A stretch of DNA of 26,357 nucleotides. Origin: a virus. Lineage: Duplodnaviria > Heunggongvirae > Uroviricota > Caudoviricetes. Every line of letters starts with the position of its first letter. The stretch's first letter is position 1. The notes beneath the pieces are model-generated. The model was not told the origin of the DNA, did no database searches, and worked only from the letters and a program-made list of their open reading frames with translations. The stretch spans positions 1-26,357 of IMG/VR virus record IMGVR_UViG_2541047815_000002. One strand, written 5' to 3'. This document shows positions 3,949 to 21,929 of this stretch, piece after piece. Both the position numbers and the translations under genes were made by a program.

Positions 3949-4802
3949 GCACCATCCTGAAATGGGCGGGAAATAAAACTGCCATAATGTCCGAACTAAA
4001 AAAACATCTTCCTGCTGGCCCGCGACTGGTTGAACCTTTCGCGGGTTCCTGTGCTGTGATGATGGAGACGGATTATCCCAGCTATCTGGTTGCGGATATT
4101 AATCCTGATTTAATCAACCTTTATAAAAAGGTTGCCGCTGATTGTGAATCGTTTATATCTCGCGCCAGAGTTTTATTTGAGATCGCAAACAGGGAGGTGG
4201 CTTATTACAACATAAGGCAGGAGTTTAATTACTCAACTGAAATTACTGATTTCATGAAAGCGGTATATTTCCTGTATCTCAATCGTCACGGTTACCGTGG
4301 TTTATGTCGCTATAACAAGAGCGGGCATTTCAACATTCCCTACGGTAATTATAAAAATCCGTATTTCCCTGAAAAAGAAATTCGCGCATTTGCAGAAAAG
4401 GCCCAGCGAGCAACGTTTATCTGCGCCAGCTTTGATGAAACGCTGGCGATGTTGAAGGCGGGGGATGTGGTGTATTGCGATCCGCCGTATGACGGTACGT
4501 TTTCCGGCTATCACACTGACGGCTTCACTGAAGATGACCAGTATCACCTGGCATCTGTTCTTGAACATCGGTCATCAGAAGGACATCCGGTCATTGTTTC
4601 TAACAGTGACACATCCCTGATCCGTTCGCTGTATCGCAATTTTACTCACCACTACATCAAGGCAAAACGCAGCATCGGTGTGGCAGCTGGCGAGGGTAAA
4701 TCAGCAACAGAAATCATTGCTGTTTCCGGGCCGCGCTGCTGGGTGGGATTTGATTATTCGCGTGGCGTGGATAGTTCTGCCGTGTACGGAGTACGTGCAT
4801 GA
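3945..4802 (+). CDS. dam: Dam-type DNA N6-adenine methyltransferase (orphan, no cognate nuclease seen)
   Basis: ATG at 3945 with GGAGG upstream. N-terminal SAM-binding motif (KWAGNK ... EPFAGS) and the catalytic DPPY tetrapeptide at 4479-4490. Translationally coupled to gene A (ATGA overlap at 4799-4802). Confidence 0.85.
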
Positions 4803-7213
4803 GTCATGCCGATATGAACAACTGCTGCGGCTTTAACGAAGCTGCCGCATCGTTCTCATGGAACAGCTCGAAAAAGGCCATTAACCCTTATCTGGACCCG
4901 GTGGAAGTTGCGCCGGTTTCTACGCTTTCAAACCTGATCACTCTGTACGCTGCCGATAACGAGCAGGAACAGCTGCGCCGTGAGGCGCTGAGTGATCAGG
5001 TCTGGGAGCGTTATTTCTTTAATGAATCCCGTGATCCTGTCCAGCGCGAAATGGAACAGGATAAGCTCATTAGTCGGGCAAAGCTGGCGCATGAGCAGCA
5101 GCGTTTTAATCCGGATATGGTCATTCTGGCGGACGTCAACGCCCAGCCTTCCCATATCAGCAAGCCGCTGATGCAACGTATTGAATACTTCAGCAGCCTG
5201 GGCAGGCCAAAGGCTTATTCCCGCTATTTACGTGAGACGATTAAGCCATGTCTGGAACGACTGGAGCATGTACGCGACAGTCAGCTATCTGCATCTTTTC
5301 GCTTTATGGCAAGCCATGAAGGGCTGGACGGCCTGCTGATCCTGCCTGAAATGAGTCAGGATCAGGTGAAACGCCTGTCCACCCTGGTAGCTGCGCATAT
5401 GAGTATGTGCCTTGATGCCGCTTGTGGCGATTTGTATGCCACCGATGACGTTAAGCCAGAAGAAATCCGCAATACATGGGAAAGGGTGGCAGCGGAAACC
5501 CTGCGTCTGGATGTCATCCCGCCTGCGTTTGAGCAACTCCGTCGGAAAAGAAACCGCCGTAAACCCGTGCCCTATGAACTCATTCCGGGTTCGCTGGCGC
5601 GTATGTTGTGCGCCGACTGGTGGTATCGGAAATTATGGAAGATGCGTTGCGAATGGCGGGAAGAGCAGTTGCGTGCTGTCTGCCTTGTCAGCAAAAAAGC
5701 ATCTCCCTATGTCAGCTATGAAGCCGTGTTGCATAAACGTGAGCAGCGCCGTAAGTCGCTGGAGTTTTTCCGTTCTCATGAACTGGTGAACGAAGACGGC
5801 GACACGCTGGACATGGAGGATGTGGTAAACGCCAGCAGCAGCAACCCTGCGCATCGCCGCAATGAGATGATGGCCTGTGTTAAAGGTCTGGAGCTTATCG
5901 CGGAAATGCGCGGTGACTGCGCCGTTTTCTACACCATCACCTGTCCGTCACGTTTCCATTCCACGCTAAATAACGGCAGGCCCAACCCAACCTGGACAAA
6001 TGCGACGGTAAGACAAAGCAGTGATTATCTGGTCGGCATGTTTGCTGCATTTCGTAAGGCGATGCACAAAGCCGGATTGCGGTGGTATGGCGTGCGGGTG
6101 GCTGAGCCGCATCATGACGGTACAGTTCACTGGCACCTGTTGTGTTTTATGCGCAAAAAAGACCGCCGCACCATCACTGCATTACTGCGTAAGTTTGCCA
6201 TCCGTGAAGACCGCGAGGAGCTGGGCAATAACACTGGGCCGCGCTTTAAGTCTGAGTTGATTAACCCGCGCAAAGGTACGCCAACAAGCTACATCGCGAA
6301 ATACATCAGTAAGAACATTGACGGGCGTGGTCTGGCTGGCGAGATCAGCAAGGAAACGGGGAAATCCCTGCGTGATAATGCTGAATACGTTAATGCCTGG
6401 GCGTCTCTGCATCGTGTTCAGCAATTCCGCTTCTTTGGCATTCCGGGGCGTCAGGCTTACCGTGAACTGCGATTGCTGGCTGGTCAGGCGGCAAGGCAAC
6501 AGGGGGACAAAAAAGCAGGTGCGCCGGTACTGGATAACCCGCGCCTTGATGCCATTCTGGCTGCTGCTGATGCTGGTTGTTTTGCCACCTACATCATGAA
6601 GCAGGGTGGCGTACTGGTTCCCCGCAAATATCACCTCATCAGAACTGCTTATGAAATCAACGAAGAGCCGACCGCCTATGGCGATCACGGCATTCGTATT
6701 TATGGCATCTGGTCACCTATTGCAGAGGGCAAGATCTGCACTCATGCCGTGAAGTGGAAAATGGTTCGTAAGGCCGTTGACGTTCAGGAGGCGGCAGCCG
6801 ACCAGGGCGCTTGCGCCCCTTGGACTCGTGGCAATAACTGTCCCCTTGCTGAAAATTTGTACCAACAAGGGAAAGACAAATCAGCTGATGGGGATACCAG
6901 AACGGATATCACCCGTATGGATGACAAGGAGTTGCACGATTACCTGCACAGTATGAACAAAAAAGAACGCCGGGAACTGGCTGCAAGGTTACGCCTGGTG
7001 AAACCGAAACGGCGTAGAGACTACAAACAGCGAATTACAGACCATCAACGACAGCAGCTCGTCTATGAACTGAAGTCCAGAGGATTTGATGGCAGCGAGA
7101 AAGAGGTCGATTTACTCCTTCGCGGCGGCAGTATTCCGTCAGGAGCAGGCCTGCGTATCTTCTATCGGAACCAGCGTTTGCAGGAAGATGATAAGTGGCG
7201 GGATCTGTATTAA
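4799..7213 (+). CDS. A: Rolling-circle replication initiator (P2 gpA family endonuclease)
   Basis: 804-aa protein. HUH-type motif HWH at 6128-6136 and paired active-site tyrosines YIAKY at 6290-6304, as in P2 A and phiX174 A. Lies in the expected position after the early genes. Confidence 0.9.
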
Positions 7214-7305
7214 TTACGCGGGTTAACAATTCGTGCTCTTAATAATACCAGGCATATCAGGCTGATGAACGTAAAAAAACGTTTTACATCAGTAAGATTA
7301 TTATA

Positions 7306-7325
7306 TACTGTAAATATAAACAGTG
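7306..7325. promoter_or_regulatory. LexA (SOS) box TACTGTAAATATAAACAGTG
   Basis: Near-consensus CTGT-N8-ACAG operator (consensus TACTGTATATATATACAGTA) about 40 bp upstream of the 7367 start. A TTTACA -35-like hexamer sits at 7283-7288. Confidence 0.6.
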
Positions 7326-7366
7326 GTTATGTGTACAGTATTGCTTGTGGTGTCATAGGAGGAAAA

Positions 7367-7555
7367 ATGCAGGACTATTTTTTGGAGTCTTTGAAGCTCC
7401 AGCGCATTGATTTTTTTCTTAAGCTTGTAGCGGCTAGTGAGTGTAGTGATGAAGAGAAGGGGCTGGCTCTGCAGTGGGTTTCTGAATTGACTGATGAACT
7501 CATGGCAAAAATCAGAAGCCACGAATACAACCGCTCAATGGATGTCATCAGCTGA
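7367..7555 (+). CDS. Small acidic protein downstream of LexA box (candidate Tum-like antirepressor component)
   Basis: ATG at 7367 with AGGAGG 4 nt upstream. 62 aa. Functional call is by position and the LexA box only. Confidence 0.4.
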   Translation: MQDYFLESLKLQRIDFFLKLVAASECSDEEKGLALQWVSELTDELMAKIRSHEYNRSMDVIS

Positions 7556-7565
7556 GGTGACTTTT

Positions 7566-7799
7566 ATGCGCATTGAAATAATGATCGATAAAGAGCAGAA
7601 AATTAGCCAGTCTACCCTGGACGCCCTTGAATCCGAGCTTTACCGCAATCTGCGCCCCCTGTATCCCAAAACGGTAATTCGTATCCGCAAAGGTAGCTCT
7701 AACGGTGTGGAACTGACCGGACTGCAACTGGACGAAGAAAGAAAACAAGTGATGAAAATTATGCAGAAGGTGTGGGAAGACGACAGCTGGCTGCATTAA
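7566..7799 (+). CDS. DinI-family protein
   Basis: 77-aa protein beginning MRIEIMIDKEQ..., with an acidic C-terminus typical of DinI-like proteins. GAGGTGA RBS. Follows the LexA-boxed small gene. Confidence 0.75.
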   Translation: MRIEIMIDKEQKISQSTLDALESELYRNLRPLYPKTVIRIRKGSSNGVELTGLQLDEERKQVMKIMQKVWEDDSWLH

Positions 7800-8304
7800 G
7801 AAACGTTGCTGGCGTCTGAACTTGCTTCTGGCGTCAGCAAGGTTGAACAACGAGCTGTGCGAGGCGTTAGCCATCTGATCAAAAGACATCAAATATCATA
7901 TTGTATATCGTGGTCAAACGCTGGAAACAATCATTCCCGGTCAGAGGGGCTTCTTTCAATGTCCAAAAGAGTGAGATAGAGGATACAGGATGGGAAGAGC
8001 TTATGATGATTGTTCTTGGATTGACTTGGAATATTTGATGTCCATTATCTAATGGACTTGGTCTTGATAGTTATCACGAAAGAGGAAGCCAACGTCATGT
8101 ATTTGAAGAGTATCTCTTACCTTTTGATTAATTATTGTCCAAGTTTTTCAAAAGCTTCTTATCTGGCGGTCGATACATGATTTACTGTTGGATATGGTAT
8201 TTAAAATTAATCTTTACACTGTGGTATATGCAGAATAGGATATTATCAATACAATCAAACCGTTTTCATACGGTTGTTAATATTGCAATGTTATAGGTAA
8301 TGTC

Positions 8305-9423
8305 ATGTATCTTTTCAAGTATTACCGTCCGGACTTCTTCTTCGAGAAAGCTATTCGTTATAATGAATTATATTTTTCCGCTCCTGCGCAATTGAATGAT
8401 CCTAATGATCTCAATATAGATTATCGTTTTGATAATAAATTGAAATTATGGGATATTTTATTGCGTTCTCCTTGCGATAAATCCTATGAAAATTTGAGTC
8501 ACATATTAGATTTGAGTAATTTGAAGATACATAAGGGATTGAATCGTATTTTTAGAGGAAAAAAAATAAAAAGTAGCATTGAGTCATTAGATAGCCTGTT
8601 TGACTCACACGTTGATGAGATACGTAAGATCATAAATGATGGTTTACTACCTATCAATGTGATTAATTCCGCTATTTATGGGAATATTCCTGAACCACGC
8701 CAATTTTTGGTCTCACTTTGCGAGAACAGTATCAAAGAAAGGTTGTATAGGAAAATAGTTCCTGCAGTATTCAGTGTGTCATTTTCAGCTAATGCGTTAG
8801 ATCGTATGATGTGGGCGCATTATGCTGCAGGCTTTAGTGGTTGTGTTGTGATTTATGAAACGCAGGATTTTAATATTAATGGCGTGCCACATCCTGGAAT
8901 GAAGCTAAGAGAAAATTTATTTTCATCAGATAAATTTAATTTTCCAGTTAAGCAAATAAAATATAGTAATCAGGCTAAAGAGGTTTCACTTCTAGACCCA
9001 AGCGCAAATGTTGCAGAGTTATTTTTAACTAAAAATAGATTTTGGAGATATGAAGCTGAATATCGAATGTTTATTCCAGAGGCAAATGCAGGAATAGGGA
9101 GTGAGCGGCATGTTCAAAGACGCGTAAATCGAAATATTGGACATATTTTTCATCATGATGCTAATGTTGTTAAAGGGATCATTTTTGGTCCTAGAATGTG
9201 TGAAATGAAAAAAGAAAGCATATGGAATTGTATCAAGTCAAATATGGAGAATTCAAATTCAACAATATGTTATTTTTTTGACTCTGAGTTATCAGCATCA
9301 GGAAAGATTACTATTTCAAAAGGGCAACGAGCGGAAAAAATGAAAAATTTCCCTTTGTTCAGGAACAAGTTAAGTCAGACGGAAATGGCTAAAGTTTTGA
9401 AGGAAATTGGCATTACGAACTAA
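8305..9423 (+). CDS. DUF2971-like protein (372 aa), accessory cargo gene, candidate anti-phage/abortive-infection factor
   Basis: Lies in a strongly AT-rich island (by eye) that contrasts with the phage backbone. From memory it resembles the DUF2971 pattern: N-terminal LFKYYR ... LYFSAPAQLNDPND, then MWAHYA and RYEAEYRMF. It occupies the tin/old-equivalent hotspot downstream of A. Confidence 0.6.
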   Translation: MYLFKYYRPDFFFEKAIRYNELYFSAPAQLNDPNDLNIDYRFDNKLKLWDILLRSPCDKSYENLSHILDLSNLKIHKGLNRIFRGKKIKSSIESLDSLFDSHVDEIRKIINDGLLPINVINSAIYGNIPEPRQFLVSLCENSIKERLYRKIVPAVFSVSFSANALDRMMWAHYAAGFSGCVVIYETQDFNINGVPHPGMKLRENLFSSDKFNFPVKQIKYSNQAKEVSLLDPSANVAELFLTKNRFWRYEAEYRMFIPEANAGIGSERHVQRRVNRNIGHIFHHDANVVKGIIFGPRMCEMKKESIWNCIKSNMENSNSTICYFFDSELSASGKITISKGQRAEKMKNFPLFRNKLSQTEMAKVLKEIGITN

Positions 9424-9488
9424 CCTAACAACAGTGCATGCCTATGCTGCCTGAATTTGCATGACCGTTTGAGGATCGTTTTTGCTAA

Positions 9489-9513
9489 GGCCCGCCAGAA
9501 CTGGCGGGCTTTT
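9489..9513 (+). terminator. Rho-independent terminator after the 372-aa cargo gene
   Basis: GC-rich hairpin (GGCCCGCCA / loop GAAC / TGGCGGGCT) followed by a TTTT run. Confidence 0.5.
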
Positions 9514-9558
9514 GCGTGGATCAGGCACCTGCATGAAAACCACTACACAAAGCGGGCA

Positions 9559-9577
9559 GGCGTGGCGGGGATACGAG
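9559..9577. other. Candidate cos (cohesive-end) core
   Basis: GGCGTGGCGGGGA matches the first 13 nt of the 186/P2 19-nt cohesive end as I recall it (GGCGTGGCGGGGAAAGCAT / GGCGAGGCGGGGAAAGCAC). It sits in a short GC-rich patch inside the AT-rich island. The distal 6 nt differ from memory, so this is uncertain. Confidence 0.35.
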
Positions 9578-9679
9578 CGCGCGCTAACTCATAAATCCTA
9601 GATTATTAGTGGATTTATCTCATTGAAATGTGCACTATTCCCAGCATTGAGTTGTACCAGATGTCTTTATGGAGGGACT

Positions 9680-11446
9680 GTGGCTTTTGTAACTGATATT
9701 CGGCTTGAAGATAATGCTATTGCTGCACCTGCGACAGCACAGGTTATGGCTCAGAGGCTAGGATCTGTATTACGTAAGAGATATGAAGAATTCATCCATA
9801 AAAGAGAGTGTGCACCAGGCCAAGCAGACTATGATGTAAAAATGGCTAGCAGGGCTTTAGCTGCATTCACTATGTATCAGTTAGGATGTGTGGATGATAA
9901 GTATGCAGGGGAGTCTGTATGTGATAGTAGTGAAGATGGTGGTATAGATGGAATAGCAATCAACCATAACGAAAAAATCGTTGTTGTTGTTCAATCAAAA
10001 TTTCACCAATCGGGAAACGGCACTTGGACAAGAGCCGATTTTATGTGTTTTAAGGATGCTTGTGAGAAGCTACAAAGTGAAAGATACGAATTATTTGATT
10101 CCATATTGCAAAATAAAAGCGGGGAAATAAGTGCGGCTTTAAGTAGTTTTGAATACAAGTTCATCTTTGCGATGGCGCATACAGGTAAAAAAGGTGCTGC
10201 AGAGGAAATATTAAATGATATGCGGGAATGGCAATATCAATTAAACGCTGCAGCTTTTACACCTGAGGATGAGCCTAAAGAGAACTGGGGATTTCAGGTT
10301 CATTTAATATCCTCTGAAGATATGATGCATTGGTTACAGAATGGCTCTCGAAATCAAATTGATCTTAACAGGGTTGAAATTGAGCGTTTTGGATTTTTGA
10401 ATGAACCATATCAAGCTTTTTACGGGGCTATTAGTGGTGATCAAGTTGCAGAATGGTGGGAAGAGCATGGTGCTCGATTATTTACAAAAAACATAAGGAA
10501 TATGCTTGGTAAAACAGAAGTGAATGAGGAAATAAAAAAGACAGCTATAGATAATCCTGATATGTTTTGGTTTTATAATAATGGGATTACTGTACTGGTT
10601 AAGGAAGTTGTTCCTCATAGACGAAACGCAGCTCCTAATATAGAGAGAGGGATTTTTGATTTTCGTGATGTAAGTGTCATTAATGGTGCACAAACAGTCA
10701 GTAGTATTGGCGCATGTAAAGATGCGCTTGGTGAAAACATATATAGACTCAAAGTGCCAGCTAGATTCATTGTTATAGATGATGATACTGATAATTTAAC
10801 TGCAAATGCAATTACAAAAGCTAACAATTTCCAAAATAGAGTATTGGGAAGAGATTTTGCATCGCAGCAGGCAGATCAACATAGATTGGCAAGGGAGTTA
10901 GTGCTTGAAGGATATCAATATCAGTTACTAAGAACAGATGAAGATCATTCACAGACAAATACGAAAGTCATTGACTTGGATGAGGCGCTCAATGCACTCG
11001 CATGTTTAAGTAAAAATAATACGGTTGTATCGACACTAAAATCAAATCGCGGTAGGTTTTTTGAAAATTTTGAAGGCTCTCTATATAAAACTATTTTCAA
11101 TCCAAGATTAAGTGGTTTAAAACTTATCAATACTGTTCTACATTTTAGAGTTATAGATAAGTTGATCGGTAAAACATTACTATCAGTAGATAAAACGACC
11201 CATAGTCGCAAGCATTTAATTATTACGCATGGTAATAGATACTATGCGTCTGTACTATTGAGCAACGTTTCTGGGATACATAATAGCTCAGAAATTCTTG
11301 TTCCAGATGAAAAAAATCTTTCCGAAGAATTAAGTGCATTAATTCAACGTGCTGAAGAGTACATTGAAGATAATTACCCGAATGCCTATCCGGCAAGATT
11401 TTTTGCAAATCCAACGAAAATACAAGAGTTATACGATAATGTTTAA
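9680..11446 (+). CDS. AIPR-like (abortive infection phage resistance family) protein with putative N-terminal PD-(D/E)xK-like motif
   Basis: Long ORF in AT-rich DNA. Start is uncertain: TTG at 9623, GTG at 9680 with GGAGGG upstream, or ATG at 9746. Motifs DGGIDGI ... VVVVQSK (D...QxK, nuclease-like) and NNGIT ... INGAQT, which I associate with the AIPR family. Followed immediately by a strong terminator. Confidence 0.55.
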   Translation: MAFVTDIRLEDNAIAAPATAQVMAQRLGSVLRKRYEEFIHKRECAPGQADYDVKMASRALAAFTMYQLGCVDDKYAGESVCDSSEDGGIDGIAINHNEKIVVVVQSKFHQSGNGTWTRADFMCFKDACEKLQSERYELFDSILQNKSGEISAALSSFEYKFIFAMAHTGKKGAAEEILNDMREWQYQLNAAAFTPEDEPKENWGFQVHLISSEDMMHWLQNGSRNQIDLNRVEIERFGFLNEPYQAFYGAISGDQVAEWWEEHGARLFTKNIRNMLGKTEVNEEIKKTAIDNPDMFWFYNNGITVLVKEVVPHRRNAAPNIERGIFDFRDVSVINGAQTVSSIGACKDALGENIYRLKVPARFIVIDDDTDNLTANAITKANNFQNRVLGRDFASQQADQHRLARELVLEGYQYQLLRTDEDHSQTNTKVIDLDEALNALACLSKNNTVVSTLKSNRGRFFENFEGSLYKTIFNPRLSGLKLINTVLHFRVIDKLIGKTLLSVDKTTHSRKHLIITHGNRYYASVLLSNVSGIHNSSEILVPDEKNLSEELSALIQRAEEYIEDNYPNAYPARFFANPTKIQELYDNV

Positions 11447-11450
11447 ACTA

Positions 11451-11475
11451 AAGGGAGGTTGCCTCCCTTTTTTTT
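11451..11475. terminator. Bidirectional rho-independent terminator between AIPR-like gene and portal gene
   Basis: AAGGGAGG-loop-CCTCCCTT hairpin followed by a T8 run on the + strand, with an A-rich run on the other side serving the convergent Q gene. Confidence 0.7.
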
Positions 11476-11477
11476 AA

Positions 11478-12506
11478 TTAGAAATGGTATTCTTGGAATT
11501 CAATAACACCTTCTTCTATGAAATTGTTTATTTCTTGTAATCTTTTTTGCAATGGCAATAATTCATTACGTACAAATACTTTACTCGCCTTCTCTACATC
11601 TCCAAAGCCCCCAACATTATTAGGCATTATCCCCATCATTTGCGGCGGCACACGGTGTGCCGCCATCATGTCGTCCCGACTCACGTTCTTGATATTCAGA
11701 AACTCATCCTTCGCCGCGACTTCTGACAACGGGATAATCTGAAGCCCGTCCTTTTTGCCGTTAGGAGAGTACATAAACAGGTTGCGGAAGTTGCCTGGCC
11801 CTTTGGCGCTTTTCATTGCGTTGCGGAGGTTGTTCACATCTTCTTGGTTCTGCGCGGCATCGGTCATGTACATGATGAAACCTGCATGGCTGCCGTTGAT
11901 GTAATACTTACGGCGGAACAGTGTGGCGGACTCGTTGAGCAGGGCTGACGGGATGGCAGAAAGATAACCTGGCAGGCCGTAGATCTCCTGGTTGATGTCC
12001 GGTTCCATCAGATGAAAAATGCTGCCTTTCGTGAACTGATACGGCTGGGCTGTCATACCGTATTGCACAAACCAGTAGGTATCCAGGTCTAATCCGCGTC
12101 GGGTGTATTTTGCCAAAGCTGGCTCAAGGGCGATAACTTCACCAAAGCGGTTCGTGCGTTTCTCCAGGTAGGCGTTACCAAATACCAGATAGTCCTGCAC
12201 AAAACGCGAAAAAGCCTGCTGGCTAAGCAGCGGATGAGGGATATAGGTACTGGTCAGAATGTTGCACTTTACTGCAATCGGGGAACTGTGATGCACGGCG
12301 GCGCGGAAGGTGCGCGCCAGTCCATTAAAGCTGACGGGCGGCTCATACCAGCGATCCATCTGTACGCATTCCACATAGTCCAGCAGTTCGCGGCGGTCCA
12401 GCACGGGGATGGGATCACCAAAGCTGAAAGCCTCAGCCGTTGGGCCGTTGCTTGGTTTTGTGTCGTGATCAACTGTTACCTGCTTGGTGTTTTTACGTTT
12501 GCTCAT
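11478..12506 (-). CDS. Q: Portal protein (P2 gpQ family)
   Basis: 342 aa, the size and position of P2 Q. Last gene of the leftward P-Q late operon. Start ATG at 12504-12506 overlaps the stop of the upstream paralog. Confidence 0.9.
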   Translation of the reverse strand: MSKRKNTKQVTVDHDTKPSNGPTAEAFSFGDPIPVLDRRELLDYVECVQMDRWYEPPVSFNGLARTFRAAVHHSSPIAVKCNILTSTYIPHPLLSQQAFSRFVQDYLVFGNAYLEKRTNRFGEVIALEPALAKYTRRGLDLDTYWFVQYGMTAQPYQFTKGSIFHLMEPDINQEIYGLPGYLSAIPSALLNESATLFRRKYYINGSHAGFIMYMTDAAQNQEDVNNLRNAMKSAKGPGNFRNLFMYSPNGKKDGLQIIPLSEVAAKDEFLNIKNVSRDDMMAAHRVPPQMMGIMPNNVGGFGDVEKASKVFVRNELLPLQKRLQEINNFIEEGVIEFQEYHF

Positions 12507-13210
12507 TCTGCCAGTTCCTTGCTAGCGAGAGGCCATTCGCACATAAACAGCATTTTCCAGTCCTCTTCTGATAATTCTTTTTTCATATCGTTCAGCCAGT
12601 TATCAGTAAACAACATTGCTCCAGATGCTGCTGCGTCATCTGCGGTGAACACCATGCTGGTTACGCTGTTGTTTCTGCATAGCTTTTTATATTCCTGCCG
12701 TGCCTCTGGGTTAGGGCTGGGAGTGGTGTAGTAGGTGGCGTGGTAGTGTGCGTGCATAGAAATCCCTTTAGCGATGGCAATCATATTTCTCGGTGATTCA
12801 CTCCAGGCATACTCTGACACGTAAACATTTCCACTGAGTGCGGAGGTGAGACTGCTGAGGTCGGTAAAATAAATTACTGCACCATTCGGAAGCTCCAGAT
12901 GACTTTTGCCTGATTTTATTTTTCCAGTGTGCGTATAAGCTGCGGCCTGGCTTAAGAATGCTGATACACAGGCTTTGATTGCCTGCGCAGATGCTGTGCT
13001 GCAGCAGAGGAAAATCTGGTTACGCCCGGTATGCAGTGCATCGTTCAGGGCTTCATAGGAAAAAAAGAAATCCGCGCCTGCCTGGCGCATTTTTGTGAGT
13101 ACACGGTTTCTACTCTTTGGGCCAGTGTTCCACTCATACTGGTAAGCAAAGAAAAAGCTATCCACCGGAAGTCCCGCGATAGTCATGAGGTTAGTTGGGA
13201 TTGGGGGCAT
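12503..13210 (-). CDS. Terminase large-subunit ATPase-domain paralog (truncated, degenerate Walker motifs)
   Basis: 235-aa ORF inserted between P and Q, overlapping both by a few nt. It aligns by eye to the central ATPase core of the adjacent gpP (EALNDALHTGRNQIFL vs EALIDALLTGRNQIFL; LPNGAVIYF vs LPNGATLYF; TYYTTPS vs TYFSTPS; LFMCEWP vs LLMCEFV). It lacks the gpP N-terminal roughly 150 aa and the C-terminal nuclease domain. Walker A-like KSRQIGAT in gpP is KMRQAGAD here (13070-13093), and Walker B LYLDE is VYVSE (Ser codon 12815-12817). Confidence 0.7.
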   Translation of the reverse strand: MPPIPTNLMTIAGLPVDSFFFAYQYEWNTGPKSRNRVLTKMRQAGADFFFSYEALNDALHTGRNQIFLCCSTASAQAIKACVSAFLSQAAAYTHTGKIKSGKSHLELPNGAVIYFTDLSSLTSALSGNVYVSEYAWSESPRNMIAIAKGISMHAHYHATYYTTPSPNPEARQEYKKLCRNNSVTSMVFTADDAAASGAMLFTDNWLNDMKKELSEEDWKMLFMCEWPLASKELAE

Positions 13211-14976
13211 CAAAAAATCTCCACAATATTGCTGGTATTGGCGGATTCGCCCTGCAGCGGTTCGTTAAACAGTGCGTGCATCGTTGCCCAGGCCAGATCG
13301 GCGTGGCTGGCTTCTTCGCTGCGGCTGGCTTCATAGGTTGGGCGGTTGCCGCTCGCGGTGGTGGCGCGACGGATTGCCATGAATGACTGCGCTATGTCGG
13401 TGTGTCCGGCGTCAAACTCCAGACGGCGGTGGCTGATAATGTCGTAGGCCTTGAGTACCAGGGCGTTTTTAACATTGGGGTTATAGACAAACTCCCGGAC
13501 GGCTGGAAAAAACGCTTTCACGTTCTCGTAAACCCCGTGGCCGACACCTGTCGAGTCGATGCCGATGTAGGTCACGTTGTACTGCTCGGTCAGTTTTTTG
13601 ATGGCGTCAGCCTGGGCGCGGAAGTCCATCCCACGCCACTGGTGACGCTCAAGAATGCGGAACTTACCACCAGGCACGGCTGGCGGTGCCACCACTACGC
13701 ATCCGGCGCTGTCGCCGTTTTGCGTACCTTTTGCCGGGTCATAACCGATCCACACTTCGCGCCAGCCAAACGGGCGCAGAGCCAGTGCATGAAAGTCGGT
13801 CCAGACTTCCCAGCTGTCCACCATGCACGCCTGCAGCTCGCTGAGCGGGAACACGGACGCGAGATCGTCCACAAACTCGCACATCAGCAGGTTCTGGTAT
13901 TCGTCCGGGCTGTACTCCATGCGCAACTGGTCAAGGTCGAACAGGTTACAGCCGCCGCGCACCGCATCTTCCACGGTGACTATCTGGCGGTATTGCCCGT
14001 CTGCGCACAGCAGGCCGGGGGCCAGATTGCTGTGGGACAGGTCGATGTCCACCTTGTCGGCCTTGTTGCGCCCACGGTTGAACAGCGCACCGGACCAGAA
14101 CGGATAAGCACTGTGTGTCAGGCTGGATGGCGTGGAAAAATAGGTTTGTCGCCATTTTTTGTGAATAGCCATACCGGAAGCCACTTTGCGCAGCTCCTGG
14201 AATTTCGGTATCCAGAAATATTCATCCAGATACAGGTTGCCGTGATAACTCTGGGCCGTGCGGGCATTGGTGCCGAGGAAGTAAAGCGTGGCTCCGTTAG
14301 GAAGCACCATCGGATCGCCTTTCAGCTCCACCTCGACTTCTTTGGCGAAGTCTATGATGTACTGCTTAAAGACGTGAGCCTGTGCCTTACTGGCAGAAAG
14401 GAAAATCTGGTTACGTCCGGTAAGCAGGGCGTCAATCAGGGCTTCACGGGCAAAGTAAAAGGTCGCGCCGATCTGGCGTGACTTCAGCAGGTTGCGGATG
14501 CGGTTGGTTTTTCCGGCTTCCCACCAGTGGCGCTGGTAGTTGAACATGGAGGAATGGAAAATTTCTTCCAGCTTCTCAATCTGTTCATCGGTGAAAACAT
14601 TCTTTTCCGGCTGACGGCGCGGGCCTTTGTTGCGGTTGGCGACGTTAGGGTTTAAGTCGGCTTCGTTACCGCCATTGTTAAACTTGCCGATCCGCGCGTG
14701 GCGCTCCGACTGGCGCGCCAGCAGGTCAATTTCTTTGAAATCTTTCCCTTCTTTGTGCTCCTTCATAATGAGCTGGCAGTAGCGTGCGGCGGTGGTGAGC
14801 TGCATCTGATCCAGCGGCCCATAGTCACCCCACTTGTCGCGTTTTTTCCAGCTGTGAACGGTTGCAACTTTCTCGCCCAGCATTTCAGCAATGCGGGCTA
14901 CGCGGTATCCCTGAAAGTACAGCAGCATGGCCTGCCGACGGGGATCGAGATCTGCGGGTGTCAGTGTGGTGTTCAT
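13210..14976 (-). CDS. P: Terminase large subunit, ATPase (P2 gpP family)
   Basis: 588 aa. N-terminal HTH-like region, deviant Walker A KSRQIGAT (lambda gpA-like), Walker B LYLDE, C-terminal nuclease region. Divergent from O across the late-promoter region. Confidence 0.9.
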   Translation of the reverse strand: MNTTLTPADLDPRRQAMLLYFQGYRVARIAEMLGEKVATVHSWKKRDKWGDYGPLDQMQLTTAARYCQLIMKEHKEGKDFKEIDLLARQSERHARIGKFNNGGNEADLNPNVANRNKGPRRQPEKNVFTDEQIEKLEEIFHSSMFNYQRHWWEAGKTNRIRNLLKSRQIGATFYFAREALIDALLTGRNQIFLSASKAQAHVFKQYIIDFAKEVEVELKGDPMVLPNGATLYFLGTNARTAQSYHGNLYLDEYFWIPKFQELRKVASGMAIHKKWRQTYFSTPSSLTHSAYPFWSGALFNRGRNKADKVDIDLSHSNLAPGLLCADGQYRQIVTVEDAVRGGCNLFDLDQLRMEYSPDEYQNLLMCEFVDDLASVFPLSELQACMVDSWEVWTDFHALALRPFGWREVWIGYDPAKGTQNGDSAGCVVVAPPAVPGGKFRILERHQWRGMDFRAQADAIKKLTEQYNVTYIGIDSTGVGHGVYENVKAFFPAVREFVYNPNVKNALVLKAYDIISHRRLEFDAGHTDIAQSFMAIRRATTASGNRPTYEASRSEEASHADLAWATMHALFNEPLQGESANTSNIVEIF

Positions 14977-15022
14977 GGCACAAACCTACAGCCTTGAATG
15001 AAGGCTTTCCCCGCCTGCGGTT

Positions 15023-15040
15023 TGTGTGGTTGTCGGTACA
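15023..15040. promoter_or_regulatory. Ogr/Delta-type late-promoter activator site (TGT-N12-ACA) in the P/O divergent region
   Basis: TGTGTGGTTGTCGGTACA. The dyad centre is about 55 bp upstream of the P start codon, the same geometry as the site upstream of V. Confidence 0.5.
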
Positions 15041-15118
15041 AATACCGCGCATTGTTTCACTGCCCCCATCACCGCAACCATAAGGCTCCAGTAAGTTTTT
15101 TCTAACGGAGCACGGCTC

Positions 15119-15952
15119 ATGACAGTGAAAGCAAAGCGTTTTCGCATCGGGGTGGAAGGTGCCACCACCGACGGACGCGAAATCCAGCGTGAATGGCTGG
15201 AACAGATGGCAGCCAGCTACAACCCGGCGGTGTATACCGCGCTGATTAACCTTGAGCACATCAAGTCTTATCTGCCGGACAGCACCTTTAACCGCTACGG
15301 CAAGGTGACGGCGCTGTTTGCTGAAGAAATCACGGAAGGTCCGCTGGCAGGCAAGATGGCGCTGTATGCCGACGTTGAGCCAACGGAGTCCCTGGTGGAA
15401 CTGGTGAAAAAAGGCCAGAAATTATTCACCTCTATGGAAGTCAGCCCGAAGTTCGCTGATACGGGCAAAGCCTACCTGGTCGGCCTGGCTGCCACTGATG
15501 ACCCTGCCAGTCTGGGCACTGAAATGCTGACATTCAGCGCCAGTGCAGCCCATAACCCGCTGGCAAACCGCAAGCAGAATCCTGCCAATCTCTTTACCGC
15601 TGCAGAGGAAACGGTGATCGAACTGGAAGAAATCCAGGATGACAAACCGTCCCTGTTTGCCCGTGTCACGGCGCTGTTCACCAAAAAAGAGCAGTCCGAT
15701 GACGCCCGGTTCTCTGATGTGCATAAGGCCGTGGAGCTGGTCGCCACTGAGCAGCAGAACCTGAGCGCACGCACCGAAAAATCCCTGTCTGAGCAGGAAG
15801 AACGTCTGTCTGAGCTGGAGACTGCCCTGCAGGCACAGCAGACCGCCTTTAACGAACTGGTGAATAAGCTGAGTCATGAAGACAGCCGCCAGGACTACCG
15901 CCAGCGTGCAACAGGCGGTAACGCCCCCGCTGACACTCTGACCAATTGCTGA
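15119..15952 (+). CDS. O: Capsid scaffolding protein (P2 gpO family)
   Basis: 277 aa, first gene rightward of the P/O divergent region, with an acidic/coiled-coil C-terminal half. Matches P2 O in size and position. Confidence 0.85.
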   Translation: MTVKAKRFRIGVEGATTDGREIQREWLEQMAASYNPAVYTALINLEHIKSYLPDSTFNRYGKVTALFAEEITEGPLAGKMALYADVEPTESLVELVKKGQKLFTSMEVSPKFADTGKAYLVGLAATDDPASLGTEMLTFSASAAHNPLANRKQNPANLFTAAEETVIELEEIQDDKPSLFARVTALFTKKEQSDDARFSDVHKAVELVATEQQNLSARTEKSLSEQEERLSELETALQAQQTAFNELVNKLSHEDSRQDYRQRATGGNAPADTLTNC

Positions 15953-15968
15953 TGGAGCACAAAACCTG

Positions 15969-17027
15969 ATGAAGAAGAATACCCGCTTTGCTTTTAACGC
16001 TTACCTGCAGCAGCTGGCGCGTCTGAACGGTGTGGCAGTTGAAGAACTGTCCAGCAAGTTCACCGTGGAGCCGTCTGTGCAGCAGACGCTGGAAGACCAG
16101 ATCCAGCAATCCGCCGCTTTCCTGACGCTGATTAACGTCACGCCAGTGACCGAGCAGTCTGGTCAGCTGCTGGGGCTGGGTGTTGGCAGCACCATTGCCG
16201 GAACCACTGATACCACCGCAAAAGAGCGTGAGCCTGTCGATCCGACGCTGATGGTCGATGTGGAATACAAATGCGAGCAGACCAACTTTGACACGGTGCT
16301 GACCTACGCGAAGCTGGACCTGTGGGCGAAGTTTCAGGATTTCCAGGTGCGTATTCGTGACGCGATCGTGAAACGTCAGGCACTGGACCGCATCATGATC
16401 GGCTTTAACGGCGTGAAGCGTGCGAAAACCTCAAACCGTAGCGAAAACCCGCTGCTGCAGGATGTGAATAAAGGCTGGCTGCAGAAAATCCGTGAAGATG
16501 CACCGGATCACGTCATGGGCAGCACCACCACGGGCGGTGAAACCACACCGGGTGCGGTGAAAGTCGGGAAAGGTGGCGAATATGCCAACCTGGACGCCGT
16601 GGTGATGGATGCCGTCAATGAGCTTATCGACGTGGTCTACCAGGACGATGACGATCTGGTGGTGATTTGCGGTCGTGAACTGTTGTCTGACAAGTATTTC
16701 CCACTGGTCAACAAAGAGCAGGAAAACAGTGAAAAACTGGCTGCCGATATGATCATCAGTCAGAAACGCATGGGTGGCCTGCAGGCGGTGCGTGCGCCGT
16801 TCTTCCCGCCGAATGCGCTGCTGATCACCCGTCTGGATAACCTGTCCATCTACTGGCAGGAAGATACCCGCCGCCGTTCAGTTATCGACAACCCGAAACG
16901 TGACCGGATTGAAAATTTTGAATCCGTTAACGAAGCCTATGTGGTTGAGGACTACCGCTGCGCCGCACTGGTGGAAAACATCCAGATTGGCGATTTCAGC
17001 GCCGCTGCAGCAGAAACCGGAGCGTAA
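15969..17027 (+). CDS. N: Major capsid protein (P2 gpN family)
   Basis: 352 aa immediately after O. Size and order match P2 N. Confidence 0.9.
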   Translation: MKKNTRFAFNAYLQQLARLNGVAVEELSSKFTVEPSVQQTLEDQIQQSAAFLTLINVTPVTEQSGQLLGLGVGSTIAGTTDTTAKEREPVDPTLMVDVEYKCEQTNFDTVLTYAKLDLWAKFQDFQVRIRDAIVKRQALDRIMIGFNGVKRAKTSNRSENPLLQDVNKGWLQKIREDAPDHVMGSTTTGGETTPGAVKVGKGGEYANLDAVVMDAVNELIDVVYQDDDDLVVICGRELLSDKYFPLVNKEQENSEKLAADMIISQKRMGGLQAVRAPFFPPNALLITRLDNLSIYWQEDTRRRSVIDNPKRDRIENFESVNEAYVVEDYRCAALVENIQIGDFSAAAAETGA

Positions 17028-17030
17028 TCC

Positions 17031-17681
17031 ATGAGCCTGAGTCCCGCACGGCAGCATCGCCTGCGCGTTCAGGCTGAACAGGCCGCCCGCGAGGGCGGCA
17101 GTGTTCGCCACGCATCGGGCTATGACCTGATGCTGCTGCAACTGGCGGAAGACCGCCGCCGTCTCAAGGGCGTTCAGTCCACGGTCAAAAAAGCGGAAAT
17201 CAAGGTGGAGCTGCTGCCGAAGTACACCGCCTGGGCAGAGGGTGTCCTGGCTGCCGGAGGCGCTCAACAGGATGACGTGCTGATGTACGTGATGCTGTGG
17301 CGCATTGATGCCGGAGATTATGCCGGAGCGCTGGAGATCGGGCGTCATGCCCTGCGTCATGGCTGGGTGATGCCGCTGGGTAACCGCAACGTGCAGACCG
17401 TGCTGGCAGAGGAAATGGCAGACGCCGCGCAGAGCGCAATGCTTGCCGCCACCGGCTTTGATGCCGATCTGTTGCTGCAGACGCTGGAGCTGACAGACGG
17501 TCTGGATATGCCGGACCAGTCACGGGCGCGTCTGCATAAAGCGATTGGCGCTGTCCTGAGTGAAAGCAATCCGGCGTCCGCCCTTAATCATCTCAACCAT
17601 GCGTTACAGCTCGATCCCCGCTGTGGCGTGAAAAAAGACAAACAGCAGCTGGAGCGCAGACTGCGCAATGACAGCCGCTGA
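17031..17681 (+). CDS. M: Terminase small/endonuclease subunit (P2 gpM family)
   Basis: 216 aa after N. Conserved segments resembling P2 M (QDDVLMYVMLWRIDAGDYAGALEIGRHAL). Confidence 0.8.
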   Translation: MSLSPARQHRLRVQAEQAAREGGSVRHASGYDLMLLQLAEDRRRLKGVQSTVKKAEIKVELLPKYTAWAEGVLAAGGAQQDDVLMYVMLWRIDAGDYAGALEIGRHALRHGWVMPLGNRNVQTVLAEEMADAAQSAMLAATGFDADLLLQTLELTDGLDMPDQSRARLHKAIGAVLSESNPASALNHLNHALQLDPRCGVKKDKQQLERRLRNDSR

Positions 17682-17776
17682 CAGAACGTGCCCCCGCGCA
17701 CGGGCGGCACGGGGTGGCGAAAGGCACAGCCTCATCAAAACCCCGTCCACCGCCCTCTATTTCAGGAGAAAGCAGC

Positions 17777-18241
17777 ATGAAGTTTGTTGCGCCAGAACAG
17801 GCACCGGAACAGGCGGAAATCATCAGAAATACGCCGTTCTGGCCTGATGTGGACCTGTCGGAGTTTCGCAGTGTCATGCGCACTGACGGCACGGTGACGC
17901 AGCCGCGTTTAAAGCAGGTTGCCCTGTCGGCAATTTCGGAGGTCAACGCAGAGCTGTATGAGTTTCGCAGACGCCAGCAGATGCTGGGGTATGCCTCGCT
18001 GGCAGAGGTTCCGGCGGAACAGCTGGACGGGAAAAGTGAGCGCATTCAGCACTATTTCAACGCGGTTTACTGCTGGGCACGCGCCATGCTCAACGAACGA
18101 TACCAGGACTATGACGCCACGGCATCCGGTGTGAAGCGAGGCGAAGAACTGGCGGAAGCCAGCGGTGATTTGTGGCGTGACGCCCGCTGGGCCATCAGCC
18201 GGGTGCAGGATGCGCCGCACTGCACAGTGGAGCTTATCTGA
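17777..18241 (+). CDS. L: Head completion/stabilisation protein (P2 gpL family)
   Basis: ATG at 17777 with CAGGAGA upstream; the longer 17714 start is rejected. Position after M. Confidence 0.8.
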   Translation: MKFVAPEQAPEQAEIIRNTPFWPDVDLSEFRSVMRTDGTVTQPRLKQVALSAISEVNAELYEFRRRQQMLGYASLAEVPAEQLDGKSERIQHYFNAVYCWARAMLNERYQDYDATASGVKRGEELAEASGDLWRDARWAISRVQDAPHCTVELI

Positions 18242-18444
18242 TGAAAGTGCGTGCGTATCAGTATGACACGGTGGACGCGCTTTGCTGGCGTCATTACGGG
18301 CGCACGCAGGGTGTCACGGAGCAGGTACTGAAGGCAAATCCGGGGCTTGCCGAATACGGCCCCTTTTTACCTCACGGGCTGCAGGTGGAGCTGCCGGACA
18401 TACCGACCACCACCACCGTGCAGACCGTCCAGCTATGGGACTGA
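18241..18444 (+). CDS. X: Tail protein X (P2 gpX family)
   Basis: 67 aa, the same length and position as P2 X. Confidence 0.75.
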   Translation: MKVRAYQYDTVDALCWRHYGRTQGVTEQVLKANPGLAEYGPFLPHGLQVELPDIPTTTTVQTVQLWD

Positions 18445-18447
18445 ATT

Positions 18448-18663
18448 ATGACGCTTGAGCGAATCAGCGCCTTTATCACGTATTGCATCGCCGTCGTGCT
18501 GGCCTGGCTGGGCGATTTGTCCATCAAGGATGCCTCAACGCTGGGCGGCCTGATGATTGGTGTGCTGATGCTGGCTATCAACTGGTACTACAAACACAAA
18601 GCCTACCAGCTTCTGCGCGACGGGCAGATCTCGCGGGAGGACTATGAATCCATCAATCGTTAA
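18448..18663 (+). CDS. Y: Holin (two predicted TM segments)
   Basis: 71-aa protein with two hydrophobic helices and a charged C-terminus, directly upstream of the endolysin. Confidence 0.65.
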   Translation: MTLERISAFITYCIAVVLAWLGDLSIKDASTLGGLMIGVLMLAINWYYKHKAYQLLRDGQISREDYESINR

Positions 18664-19156
18664 ACGCTGCCTTGTCGGGGCCGTGCTGGCTATTGCTGCC
18701 ACGCTGCCGGGTTTTCAGCAGCTTCACACCTCCGTGGAGGGGCTGAAACTGATTGCCGATTACGAAGGCTGTCGTCTGCAGCCGTATCAGTGCAGCGCGG
18801 GTGTCTGGACCGACGGCATTGGTAATACATCGGGCGTCATTCCCGGCAAAACAATCACGGAACGACAGGCAGCAGAAGGGCTGATCTCCAACGTGCTGCG
18901 TGTGGAGCGGGCACTGGAAAGGTGTGTGAAGCAACAGCCACCACAGAAGGTGTATGACGCTACGGTGTCGTTTGCCTTCAACGTGGGGACGGGCAATGCC
19001 TGTAGTTCCACGCTGGTGAAATTGCTCAATCAGCGGCGCTGGGCGGATGCGTGCCGACAGTTGCCGCGCTGGGTTTATGTAAAAGGTGTGTTTAATCAGG
19101 GGCTGGATAACCGCCGTGCGCGGGAGATGGCCTGGTGTTTACAGGGAGCAAACTGA
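18644..19156 (+). CDS. K: Endolysin, T4-lysozyme-like (GH24), possible N-terminal SAR segment
   Basis: Catalytic signature EGLKLIADYEG ... WTDGIGNT (E/D/T triad pattern of the T4 lysozyme family). N-terminal Gly/Ala-rich weakly hydrophobic segment CLVGAVLAIAATLPG. Confidence 0.85.
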   Translation: MNPSIVKRCLVGAVLAIAATLPGFQQLHTSVEGLKLIADYEGCRLQPYQCSAGVWTDGIGNTSGVIPGKTITERQAAEGLISNVLRVERALERCVKQQPPQKVYDATVSFAFNVGTGNACSSTLVKLLNQRRWADACRQLPRWVYVKGVFNQGLDNRRAREMAWCLQGAN

Positions 19157-19157
19157 A

Positions 19158-19535
19158 ATGAAAAAGAAATTAATCAGCGGGCTGTTTCTGATGTTATGGA
19201 TGGCGCTGTTAATCGCAGCAATGGTGTATCCGCAGGGGATCTTTCCGGTACTGGCAGCGTCCGGCGTTTGGGTAGCCTGTTTGCTGACATGGGCGGTAAT
19301 TCCGGTAGCACTGGCTGCGTTAATTCAGAATGGCCCGCTCTGGCAGGAGTTAAGGGCATCTTTGCTGAAGACAATTACCCGAAAAGAAAACGTATTTATC
19401 TGTTGGGTGATGCGATTGCTGATTGTTGTAAGTCTCGCATGGACGGGGTGGGCTATTACCCTGGTCTTTTATCTACTGACCGTTATTGCCTTCTGGATCA
19501 CCCGTAATCAGATGGCGCAACAGGTAGCAGCATGA
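19158..19535 (+). CDS. lysA: LysA-like membrane protein (lysis timing)
   Basis: ATG at 19158. Multi-pass hydrophobic 125-aa protein in the P2 lysA position. Confidence 0.6.
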   Translation: MKKKLISGLFLMLWMALLIAAMVYPQGIFPVLAASGVWVACLLTWAVIPVALAALIQNGPLWQELRASLLKTITRKENVFICWVMRLLIVVSLAWTGWAITLVFYLLTVIAFWITRNQMAQQVAA

Positions 19536-19960
19536 ACCGGTTGCTGCTGGTTGTGCTGGCGTTATTACTGGCGGCGCTGGGCTGGCAGACGTGGCGGCTG
19601 GCTGATGCCAGCCAGACCATCAGCACGCAGGCAAACGAGCTGCAGAGCAAAAGCCAGGCACTGGCAAAGAGCAACAGCCAGCTTATCAGCCTGTCCATTC
19701 TGACTGAAACCAATAACCGGGAGCAGGCGCGGCTCTATGCCGAAGCAGAACAGACCAGCGCACAGCTGAGACAACGACAACGCCGGATCGAGGAACTGAA
19801 ACGTGAGAACGAGGATTTACGCCACTGGGCTGATACTCCTTTGCCTGCTGACATTATCCGGCTGCGGGAACGTCCGGCACTCACCGGAGGTGCAGCTTAC
19901 CGTCAGTGGTTGTCCGCGAGTGACGCCGTGTCGGCTGGAGCAGGCAGCACCGCGCACTAA
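19532..19960 (+). CDS. lysB: i-spanin (Rz-like, P2 LysB)
   Basis: N-terminal TM anchor followed by a coiled-coil-like Q/E/R-rich periplasmic domain. ATGA overlap with lysA. Confidence 0.7.
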   Translation: MNRLLLVVLALLLAALGWQTWRLADASQTISTQANELQSKSQALAKSNSQLISLSILTETNNREQARLYAEAEQTSAQLRQRQRRIEELKRENEDLRHWADTPLPADIIRLRERPALTGGAAYRQWLSASDAVSAGAGSTAH

Positions 19961-20093
19961 CGGTGATCTGAATGCGTTGCTGGATGAAACGGAGGCCGCC
20001 TGGGCGGTCTGTGCAGACAAAGTGGACATGATTATTGCGTGTCAGGAGCGAAACAGTGAACAAACCACAATCCCTGCGCCACGCCCTCAATAA
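19803..20093 (+). CDS. lysC: o-spanin lipoprotein (Rz1-like, P2 LysC), embedded/overlapping
   Basis: Alternative-frame ORF starting at GTG 19803 with lipobox LTLSGC. Overlaps the 3' end of lysB and the 5' end of R, as in P2. Confidence 0.6.
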   Translation: MRTRIYATGLILLCLLTLSGCGNVRHSPEVQLTVSGCPRVTPCRLEQAAPRTNGDLNALLDETEAAWAVCADKVDMIIACQERNSEQTTIPAPRPQ

Positions 20094-20487
20094 AGCGGTG
20101 CCTTATGTCCGCAATAACCCGGACAAACTGCATCTGTTTGTGGATAACGGTTCGCTGGTTGCCACGGGGGCCAGCTCCATGTCATGGGAGTACCATTATA
20201 CCCTCAACGTGGTGATTGAGGATTTCAGCGGCGACCAGAATCTGCTGATGGCCCCGGTTTTGCTGTGGCTGAGGGATAACCAGCCCGATGCCATCAATAA
20301 CCCGGCGTTACGGGAAAAGCTATTCACCTTTGAGGTGGATATTCTGCGCAACGATGTCTGTGATATCAGCCTGAACCTGCAACTGACGGAACGTGTGCTG
20401 GTCAGCACTGACGGCAGTGTGTCGAGCGTTGAAGCTATAGCGGAACCTGATGCACCTGAAGAAATGTGGACGGTGAAACGTGGCTGA
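20056..20487 (+). CDS. R: Tail completion protein R
   Basis: GTG at 20056 with AGGAGCG upstream. Sequence resembles P2 R (SLRHALNKAV ... FVDNGS ... YTLNVVIEDFSGD). Confidence 0.8.
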   Translation: MNKPQSLRHALNKAVPYVRNNPDKLHLFVDNGSLVATGASSMSWEYHYTLNVVIEDFSGDQNLLMAPVLLWLRDNQPDAINNPALREKLFTFEVDILRNDVCDISLNLQLTERVLVSTDGSVSSVEAIAEPDAPEEMWTVKRG

Positions 20488-20926
20488 ACTGCAGAAGGTG
20501 GACGACTGGCTGAGTGCCTTGCTGGCGAATCTGGAACCAGCCTCGAGAAGCCGCATGATGCGCCAGCTGGCGCAGGAACTTCGCCGGACACAGCAGCAGA
20601 ATATCAGGATGCAGCGCAACCCTGACGGCAGCAGCTATGAACCGCGACGGGTAACAGCACGCAGTAAAAAAGGCCGTATCAAACGTCAGATGTTTGCAAA
20701 GCTGCGCACCACAAAATACCTGAAAACTGCCGCCAGCACCGACTCTGCCAGCGTGCAGTTTGAAGGCAAGGTGCAGCGCATTGCCCGCGTTCACCATTAC
20801 GGCCTGCGAGATCGCGTCAGTCGTAAGGGACCGGAGGTGCGTTACGCAGAGCGTCGCCTTCTGGGTGTAAATGATGATGTTGAGGCAATGACCCGCGACA
20901 TGATTCTGCAATGGCTGGCGGGGTGA
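20480..20926 (+). CDS. S: Tail completion protein S
   Basis: GTG start overlapping the R stop. Conserved RMMRQLAQELRRTQQQNIRMQRNPDGS segment, as in P2 S. Confidence 0.8.
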   Translation: MAELQKVDDWLSALLANLEPASRSRMMRQLAQELRRTQQQNIRMQRNPDGSSYEPRRVTARSKKGRIKRQMFAKLRTTKYLKTAASTDSASVQFEGKVQRIARVHHYGLRDRVSRKGPEVRYAERRLLGVNDDVEAMTRDMILQWLAG

Positions 20927-20930
20927 TCTT

Positions 20931-20948
20931 TGTATCAGCACTGATACA
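20931..20948. promoter_or_regulatory. Ogr/Delta-type late-promoter activator site upstream of V (perfect TGT-N12-ACA dyad)
   Basis: TGTATCAGCACTGATACA, a perfect extended palindrome centred about 55 bp upstream of the V ATG. Confidence 0.55.
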
Positions 20949-20994
20949 AGTTGCAGCACTGCCGCCTTTCTTCCCCTGATGGCAACCTTTCCCT

Positions 20995-21573
20995 ATGAAC
21001 GCACAATTAACCGAAATCATGCGCCTTATCACCAACCTGATCCGCACAGGGGTAGTCACCGAAGTGGACAGGGAAAACTGGCTTTGCCGGGTGAAAACGG
21101 GCGAGCTTGAAACCAACTGGATCAGCTGGCTGACGCTGCGTGCCGGGAATGCCCGTACATGGTGGCGACCATCGGAAGGTGAGCAGGTGGTGCTGCTGAG
21201 TCTGGGCGGCAATCTGGAAACCGCCTTTGCGCTGCCCGCTGTCTATTCGAATCAGTTCGCACCACCGTCGACGTCGGCGGATGCCTGCGTGACAGAATAT
21301 CCTGACGGTGGCTGGTTTGAATACGAACCCGCCACCGGGCGCTGGTATGTCAGGGGCATCAAATCAATGGTCATTGAGGCTGCTGACAACATCACCATGA
21401 AAACCAGTGAGTTTGTACTGGAGGCTGACCGCACGCGCATTAACAGCGAAGTGGTGATCAATGGTGGCGTTACCCAGGGCGGCGGAGCGATGAGTTCTAA
21501 CGGGATCGTGGTTGATGCGCATCAGCATACTGGCGTCCTGAAAGGCGGCGATACAACCGGAGGCCCGGTATGA
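20995..21573 (+). CDS. V: Baseplate spike/assembly protein V
   Basis: 192 aa. N-terminus and WISWLTLRAGNARTWW segment resemble P2 gpV. Confidence 0.85.
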   Translation: MNAQLTEIMRLITNLIRTGVVTEVDRENWLCRVKTGELETNWISWLTLRAGNARTWWRPSEGEQVVLLSLGGNLETAFALPAVYSNQFAPPSTSADACVTEYPDGGWFEYEPATGRWYVRGIKSMVIEAADNITMKTSEFVLEADRTRINSEVVINGGVTQGGGAMSSNGIVVDAHQHTGVLKGGDTTGGPV

Positions 21574-21929
21574 CGCTTTATAGCGGGATGAACAATACCA
21601 GCGGCAAAGTCATTACTGATATTGATCATCTGCGCCAGTCGGTGCGGGACATTCTGCTGACACCGCAGGGTAGCCGTATTGCCCGCCGGGAATATGGTTC
21701 CCTGCTGTCTGCACTGATAGATCAGCCACAAAATCCGGCATTACGCCTGCAGGTCATGTCGGCTGTGTATGTTGCACTGAGTCGCTGGGAGCCACGGCTG
21801 ACGCTGGATTCCATCACTATTAACAGCAATTTTGACGGTTCAATGGTGGTGGAGCTGACCGGACGGCGGAATAACGGTGTGCCTGTGTCCCTTTCAGTAT
21901 CAACAGGAGCAGAGAATGGCAGTGATTGA
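21570..21929 (+). CDS. W: Baseplate protein W (GPW/gp25 family)
   Basis: 119 aa, ATGA-coupled to V. Position and size match P2 W. Confidence 0.85.
   Translation: MTLYSGMNNTSGKVITDIDHLRQSVRDILLTPQGSRIARREYGSLLSALIDQPQNPALRLQVMSAVYVALSRWEPRLTLDSITINSNFDGSMVVELTGRRNNGVPVSLSVSTGAENGSD

Follow-up and report, generated by a model that had tools for sequence, protein, structure and literature searches.

A DUF2971 gene in the gpA-gpQ hotspot of a P2-like prophage as a candidate single-gene anti-phage factor

Introduction

Anti-phage systems have been reported to cluster in the interval between genes gpA and gpQ of P2-like prophages, a known hotspot (PMC9122126; PMC13586616). In the window, by which we mean the whole stretch of 26,357 nucleotides analysed here, this interval is bordered by gpA (4799-7213) on the left and the portal gene Q (11478-12506) on the right, and it carries an AT-rich gene of the DUF2971 family. 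The locus raises the question of whether this gene is defence cargo, whether it acts alone and by what chemistry. A first-pass annotation had proposed a single-gene defence or abortive-infection factor. Our analysis makes an anti-phage factor of this sort, acting by abortive infection, the most likely reading, and places it in a kind that is already catalogued and barely studied.

Results

A foreign cassette between the DinI-like gene and cos

The 372-aa open reading frame claimed at 8305-9423 on the plus strand is present as described and starts with ATG. Its product is 100% identical to WP_021542067.1, named in RefSeq "DUF2971 domain-containing protein". The chance of an equally long open frame at the local composition is about 4e-14, and dN/dS is 0.135 against an allele of 84% identity and 0.18 against a 98% allele; this is a real gene on which purifying selection acts.

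The gene is part of a cargo cassette of 1,561 bp (7872-9432, plus strand), made up of a 433-bp leader/promoter region and the gene itself. Exact insertion limits can be given because, in the empty slot of phage 500465-1, the homologues of window positions 7205-7871 and 9433-9584 are separated by only 5 bp, the left-hand backbone homology with this phage extending to 7871. The cassette has a GC content of 0.340 (0.335 for the open reading frame, with GC3 of 0.29), compared with 0.53 for gpA (GC3 0.57), 0.50 for the portal gene (GC3 0.59) and 0.55 for the backbone at 11478-25000. The suspicion that the region is compositionally foreign is therefore borne out, with 0.34 in the cassette against ~0.50-0.55 in the backbone. 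The first-pass annotation had described one AT-rich tract from 7850 to 11470: the AT-richness holds but the single block does not, since a conserved GC-rich backbone piece of 152 bp (9433-9584, GC 0.58) divides two cassettes. This piece, which holds a terminator-like hairpin and a cos-like site, is kept in DUF2971-only, AIPR-only and empty-slot arrangements alike.

On its left the first slot is flanked by a DinI-like gene (7566-7799, plus strand; Pfam DinI, E 1e-22), the last backbone gene of the early operon, which also has a RefSeq annotation on the identical stretch of strain p10A. On its right lies the cos-like 19-mer GGCGTGGCGGGGATACGAG (9559-9577, plus strand; P2 cos, GGCGAGGCGGGGAAAGCAC). 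Window positions 9530-9588 align to the circularised P2 cos junction (59 nt, 75% identity, E 5e-7), the annotated P2 cosL and cosR falling in register, and judging from this similarity cleavage would occur at the 19-mer. An AIPR/AbiU-like gene (9680-11446, plus strand) fills the second slot, located between cos and Q; it encodes 588 aa from the GTG start given by RefSeq and matches Pfam AIPR (E 7e-35), PADLOC AbiU (E 7e-25) and phrog_1841 (E 8e-173). A plus-strand hairpin with a U-run (11450-11470), matched by the terminator scan and folding with a dG of -15.5 kcal/mol, separates the AIPR gene from the portal gene at the place of P2 tQ and forms the right flank of this slot. The cos-like site lies between the DUF2971 and AIPR genes, and these would therefore come to lie at opposite ends of the packaged genome.

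The position proposed as equivalent to that of tin and old is thus the one found: like these P2 genes, the cassette is non-essential, AT-rich cargo at the address between the early operon genes gpA/DinI and cos. The proteins are unrelated, however, and whereas tin and old are transcribed against the early operon from a mapped promoter, the DUF2971 gene is co-oriented with it. In E. coli E423 the same slot contains DarT and its macro-domain antitoxin. The DUF2971 gene is variable cargo of the gpA-gpQ interval, adjacent to cos, and the hotspot table of Rousset et al. (2022) enters WP_021542067.1 as "hypothetical + DinI + DUF2971 + hypothetical"; it is apparently not among the genes that were cloned in that study.

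Family membership

Assignment to DUF2971 was upheld, although it is marginal on the Pfam model alone: the PF11185 match reaches 22.4 bits, the gathering cut-off being 22 (residues 169-255, full model length, positions 1-89), and relatives recovered by the family profile reach 27-48 bits. Defence-system models lend it support. Four PADLOC HMMs of PDC-S31 match the protein, the best being PDLC04990 (E 3.1e-23, residues 3-312) and the other three ranging from E 1e-16 to 3e-5, as judged by E-value and with no curated PADLOC cut-off. All relatives tested match both PF11185 and PDC-S31, and the protein also matches phrog_1762 (E 5e-29). PDC-S31 is itself a computational candidate, and a full-text literature search for the name returned no paper. 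The gene resembles this class in its four matches and in standing as a single-gene unit, the organisation that the "S" implies; it differs in that the protein is ~110 residues longer than the best model, owing to a helical insert and a C-terminal part.

The family is large: a subfamily profile recovers 6,814 cluster representatives at E <= 0.001. Within mobile elements the yield was small: three loci in IMG/VR, two weak matches among plasmids and, in a collection of phage GenBank records, no homologue by tblastn and only backbone pieces by megablast.

Conserved residues and predicted fold

One analysis predicts that DUF2971 proteins are ADP-ribosyltransferases (ARTs) akin to DarT and AbiGi, in which a Tyr and an ExE motif are conserved (PMC12522546). 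The first-pass annotation could not link the family to a characterised mechanism; the absence of any link has been superseded by this prediction and by the description of Aristaios (PMC11381338), while the chemistry is still a predicted one. We measured residue conservation across 131 family representatives sharing at most 50% mutual identity. All 131 share Y173, G179, Y220, K243, E250 and E252, and 130 have R254; N31, D32, S159-F160-S161, W170 and H172 are near-invariant, and position 5, a lysine here, is R or K in 124 of the 125 ungapped sequences. The conserved motifs are thus a basic residue at position 5, S-F-S, W-x-H-Y and E-x-E-x-R. They include the reported core of strict Tyr and E-x-E (PMC12522546) as Y173, E250 and E252. 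From this pattern K5, S159-F-S161, Y173 and E250-x-E252 are candidate active-site residues.

An AF2 model of the protein (pLDDT 92.8, pTM 0.86) predicts an ART-like core, a helical insert at about residues 46-148 and a subfamily-specific C-terminal part at about residues 300-372. Its closest structural relatives are probably DarT proteins (PDB entries 7yk3, 7omv and 8baq are named for DarT), and further matches include the TreX, SopF, PARP15, TreTu, ART2.2, scabin, CARDS, LT and pertussis toxin ARTs. The predicted fold resembles DNA/RNA ADP-ribosyltransferases. Foldseek gave no significant match against PDB or against the BFVD viral structures. At the sequence level, PDB sequences searched with profiles from the narrow (A1) and the broad (A4) alignment yielded nothing meaningful, hhalign comparison of the narrow and broad family alignments (three versions) with a 31-sequence DarT alignment gave probabilities of 0.2-0.4%, and Pfam DarT (PF14487/DUF4433) did not match at E <= 0.1.

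These results bear on the strongest of the alternatives, namely a defence gene that does not ADP-ribosylate: a pseudo-enzyme, an NAD+-depleting enzyme, a Tpt1-like 2'-phosphotransferase or other RNA-end modifier, or a protein acting by binding or sequestration. The motif-I His of H-Y-E ARTs is apparently K or R in this clade, and the searches just described link no characterised ART to the protein by sequence, both of which favour such a reading. Nevertheless, we consider it unlikely: the invariant E-x-E and Tyr and the S-x-S-like elements across the 131 representatives point to a working site of the ART type, and the classification of DUF2971 as an ART with a conserved catalytic core was reached independently.

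Transcription signals and the distribution of the cassette

Downstream of the gene, 65 nt past its stop codon, lies the terminator-like hairpin GCCCGCCAG-aa-CTGGCGGGC, followed by TTTT (9488-9516, plus strand; inverted repeat I10). It has a predicted RNA fold dG of -24.5 kcal/mol (z -4.3), and it is absent from the output of the consensus terminator scan. The gene had been credited with its own terminator. A strong hairpin with UUUU does stand downstream, but it does not belong to the cassette: it lies in the backbone piece, is kept in the empty slot and would terminate transcription of any occupant of slot 1. Upstream, a consensus scan predicts a promoter-like element, TTTACA-17 nt-TAGGAT (8213-8241, plus strand). 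The element is kept in the 98% and 83% alleles, in which the leader upstream of it is largely deleted or diverged; in the region as a whole promoter-like sites are not enriched by the same kind of scan (19 versus 17 expected from shuffled sequence). The leader also contains a small hairpin at 8258-8275, and no Rfam family matches 7700-11600 at E <= 1.

Because the hairpin behind the DinI-like gene (7800-7845) lacks a U-run, transcription may continue past it from the early operon. Given that the DUF2971 gene is co-oriented with this lytic operon from gpA to DinI, it may therefore be expressed by read-through during lytic growth and not in the lysogen. The product could then serve the phage itself, as a lytic host-takeover or counter-defence enzyme, for which the T4 ADP-ribosyltransferases Alt and Mod are the model, or else act as an effector in lysogenic conversion or virulence. 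In favour of such a role, ~18% of DUF2971 proteins are predicted secreted effectors (PMC12522546). We regard a role outside defence as quite unlikely on several grounds. The gene is dispensable and rare, the cassette being found in 27 of 5,426 complete E. coli genomes (counted as present at >=80% coverage) and the slot sometimes being empty; the slot is one that also houses defence genes such as tin/old and DarTG; some homologues lie outside phages, and others are morons of lambdoid prophages in counter-orientation; the gene has PADLOC candidate status; and its product contains no hydrophobic segment (highest 19-aa Kyte-Doolittle mean 1.06).

Search for a partner gene

That the gene forms a module on its own is supported by the recurrence of the 1,561-bp cassette beside at least seven different neighbours and by homologues in other contexts, which share no partner. 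Across eight sampled arrangements (the window and seven genomes) we found seven different slot-2 neighbours: AIPR, a 557-aa protein (two genomes), PIN, DUF262, a 380-aa protein, two hypothetical proteins, and DUF4145. The gpA-gpQ hotspot is thus organised as two slots flanking cos, which reassort independently. Homologues of 34-63% identity stand alone in two lambdoid prophages, an AlpA island and a Pseudomonas chromosome, and neither a conserved neighbour nor an antitoxin was found across the P2-like, lambdoid, AlpA-island and chromosomal contexts. In the cassette and its flanks we found no macro-domain (DarG) gene. Small upstream open reading frames were considered as a partner gene and rejected, as they are not conserved and are partly deleted in the 98% alleles.

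The leader nevertheless has to be weighed as a source of an antitoxin, a small RNA or a short peptide, with the DUF2971 protein as the toxin of a toxin-antitoxin or addiction module. The DarT proteins, probably its closest structural relatives, are toxins that require DarG, and the 433-bp leader is long, contains the hairpin at 8258-8275 and in one allele has an annotated open reading frame of 86 aa. This frame, however, is broken in the window and partly removed by a 124-bp deletion in the 17 alleles of the 98% group; the absence of Rfam matches and of a conserved neighbour in five other contexts also counts against an antitoxin, and Aristaios functions as one cloned gene (PMC11381338). A toxin-antitoxin module thus appears improbable. 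A two-gene defence system made up of DUF2971 and AIPR is very improbable indeed: the two genes are adjacent, co-oriented, both AT-rich and found together in four E. coli genomes at 99.9-100% identity, but the assortment data contradict this, with AIPR present and the DUF2971 cassette absent in many genomes (e.g., behind DarTG in E423), six other kinds of gene following the cassette and the backbone piece with its hairpin and cos-like site intervening. The neighbouring AIPR gene is a module in its own right.

Discussion

We therefore favour, with a probability of roughly 0.55, a stand-alone cytoplasmic DUF2971 anti-phage factor that works by the mechanism proposed below and sits, as exchangeable cargo, between DinI and cos at the right-hand end of a P2-like prophage genome. 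The computational checks suggested in the first-pass annotation all turned out in favour of its reading, and "candidate" is the fitting word for the role in defence. The closest precedent is Aristaios, a single DUF2971 gene encoding 316 aa on the Lactococcus plasmid pUCCL641, which confers an abortive-infection phenotype and prevents either transcription by the phage or production of its proteins (PMC11381338, PMC13064643, PMC12967558). Both are single genes on a mobile element, with DUF2971 as the sole Pfam domain and no partner. Aristaios nevertheless belongs to another phylum, resides on a plasmid instead of a prophage and is 56 residues shorter; it is a distant relative, linked to our protein by the shared DUF2971 domain only, and its phenotype is experimental whereas the window protein is known from its sequence and a model. 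A 316-aa relative (P0299) was considered as Aristaios itself, an identification that was not possible.

The scheme that we infer, covering expression in the lysogen, self-inhibition, trigger, NAD+ chemistry, target and anti-phage activity, would run as follows. The lysogen would make the protein from a promoter inside its own 433-bp leader, and the helical insert and C-terminal part would keep it inactive with no antitoxin involved. Upon infection by another phage, the protein would transfer ADP-ribose from NAD+ to a nucleic acid or to part of the gene-expression machinery; phage transcription or protein synthesis would halt and the infection would be aborted.

With DarT the protein shares a prophage slot, and both are candidate NAD+-dependent modifiers directed against phage. 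Unlike DarT, the window protein has no macro-domain antitoxin, is about twice the size and contains the helical insert of ~100 residues; in the first-strand motif, K/R of the DUF2971 clade stands against His in DarT. We only tentatively suggest that it is an antitoxin-less relative of DarT-type nucleic-acid ARTs, with the hybrid signature [K/R] ... S-x-S ... Y ... E-x-E, which is inhibited by its own insert and C-terminal part and fires on sensing phage. If true, self-inhibition and firing only upon phage sensing would make it sensor and effector in one protein, in a slot that elsewhere holds the two-protein DarTG, and the protein would show what chemistry is used by a DUF2971 family with several thousand uncharacterised members.

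These results do not overturn current views; they fill in a catalogued candidate. The arrangement of the hotspot as two slots that reassort independently bears on how defence cargo is shuffled among P2-like prophages. As for the family, Aristaios is the only DUF2971 member that has been tested. A member from E. coli and a P2-like prophage, with a tractable host and standard phage panels, offers a convenient entry to the questions that DUF2971 poses: what these proteins modify, how an ART-like toxin is tolerated with no antitoxin, and what triggers it.

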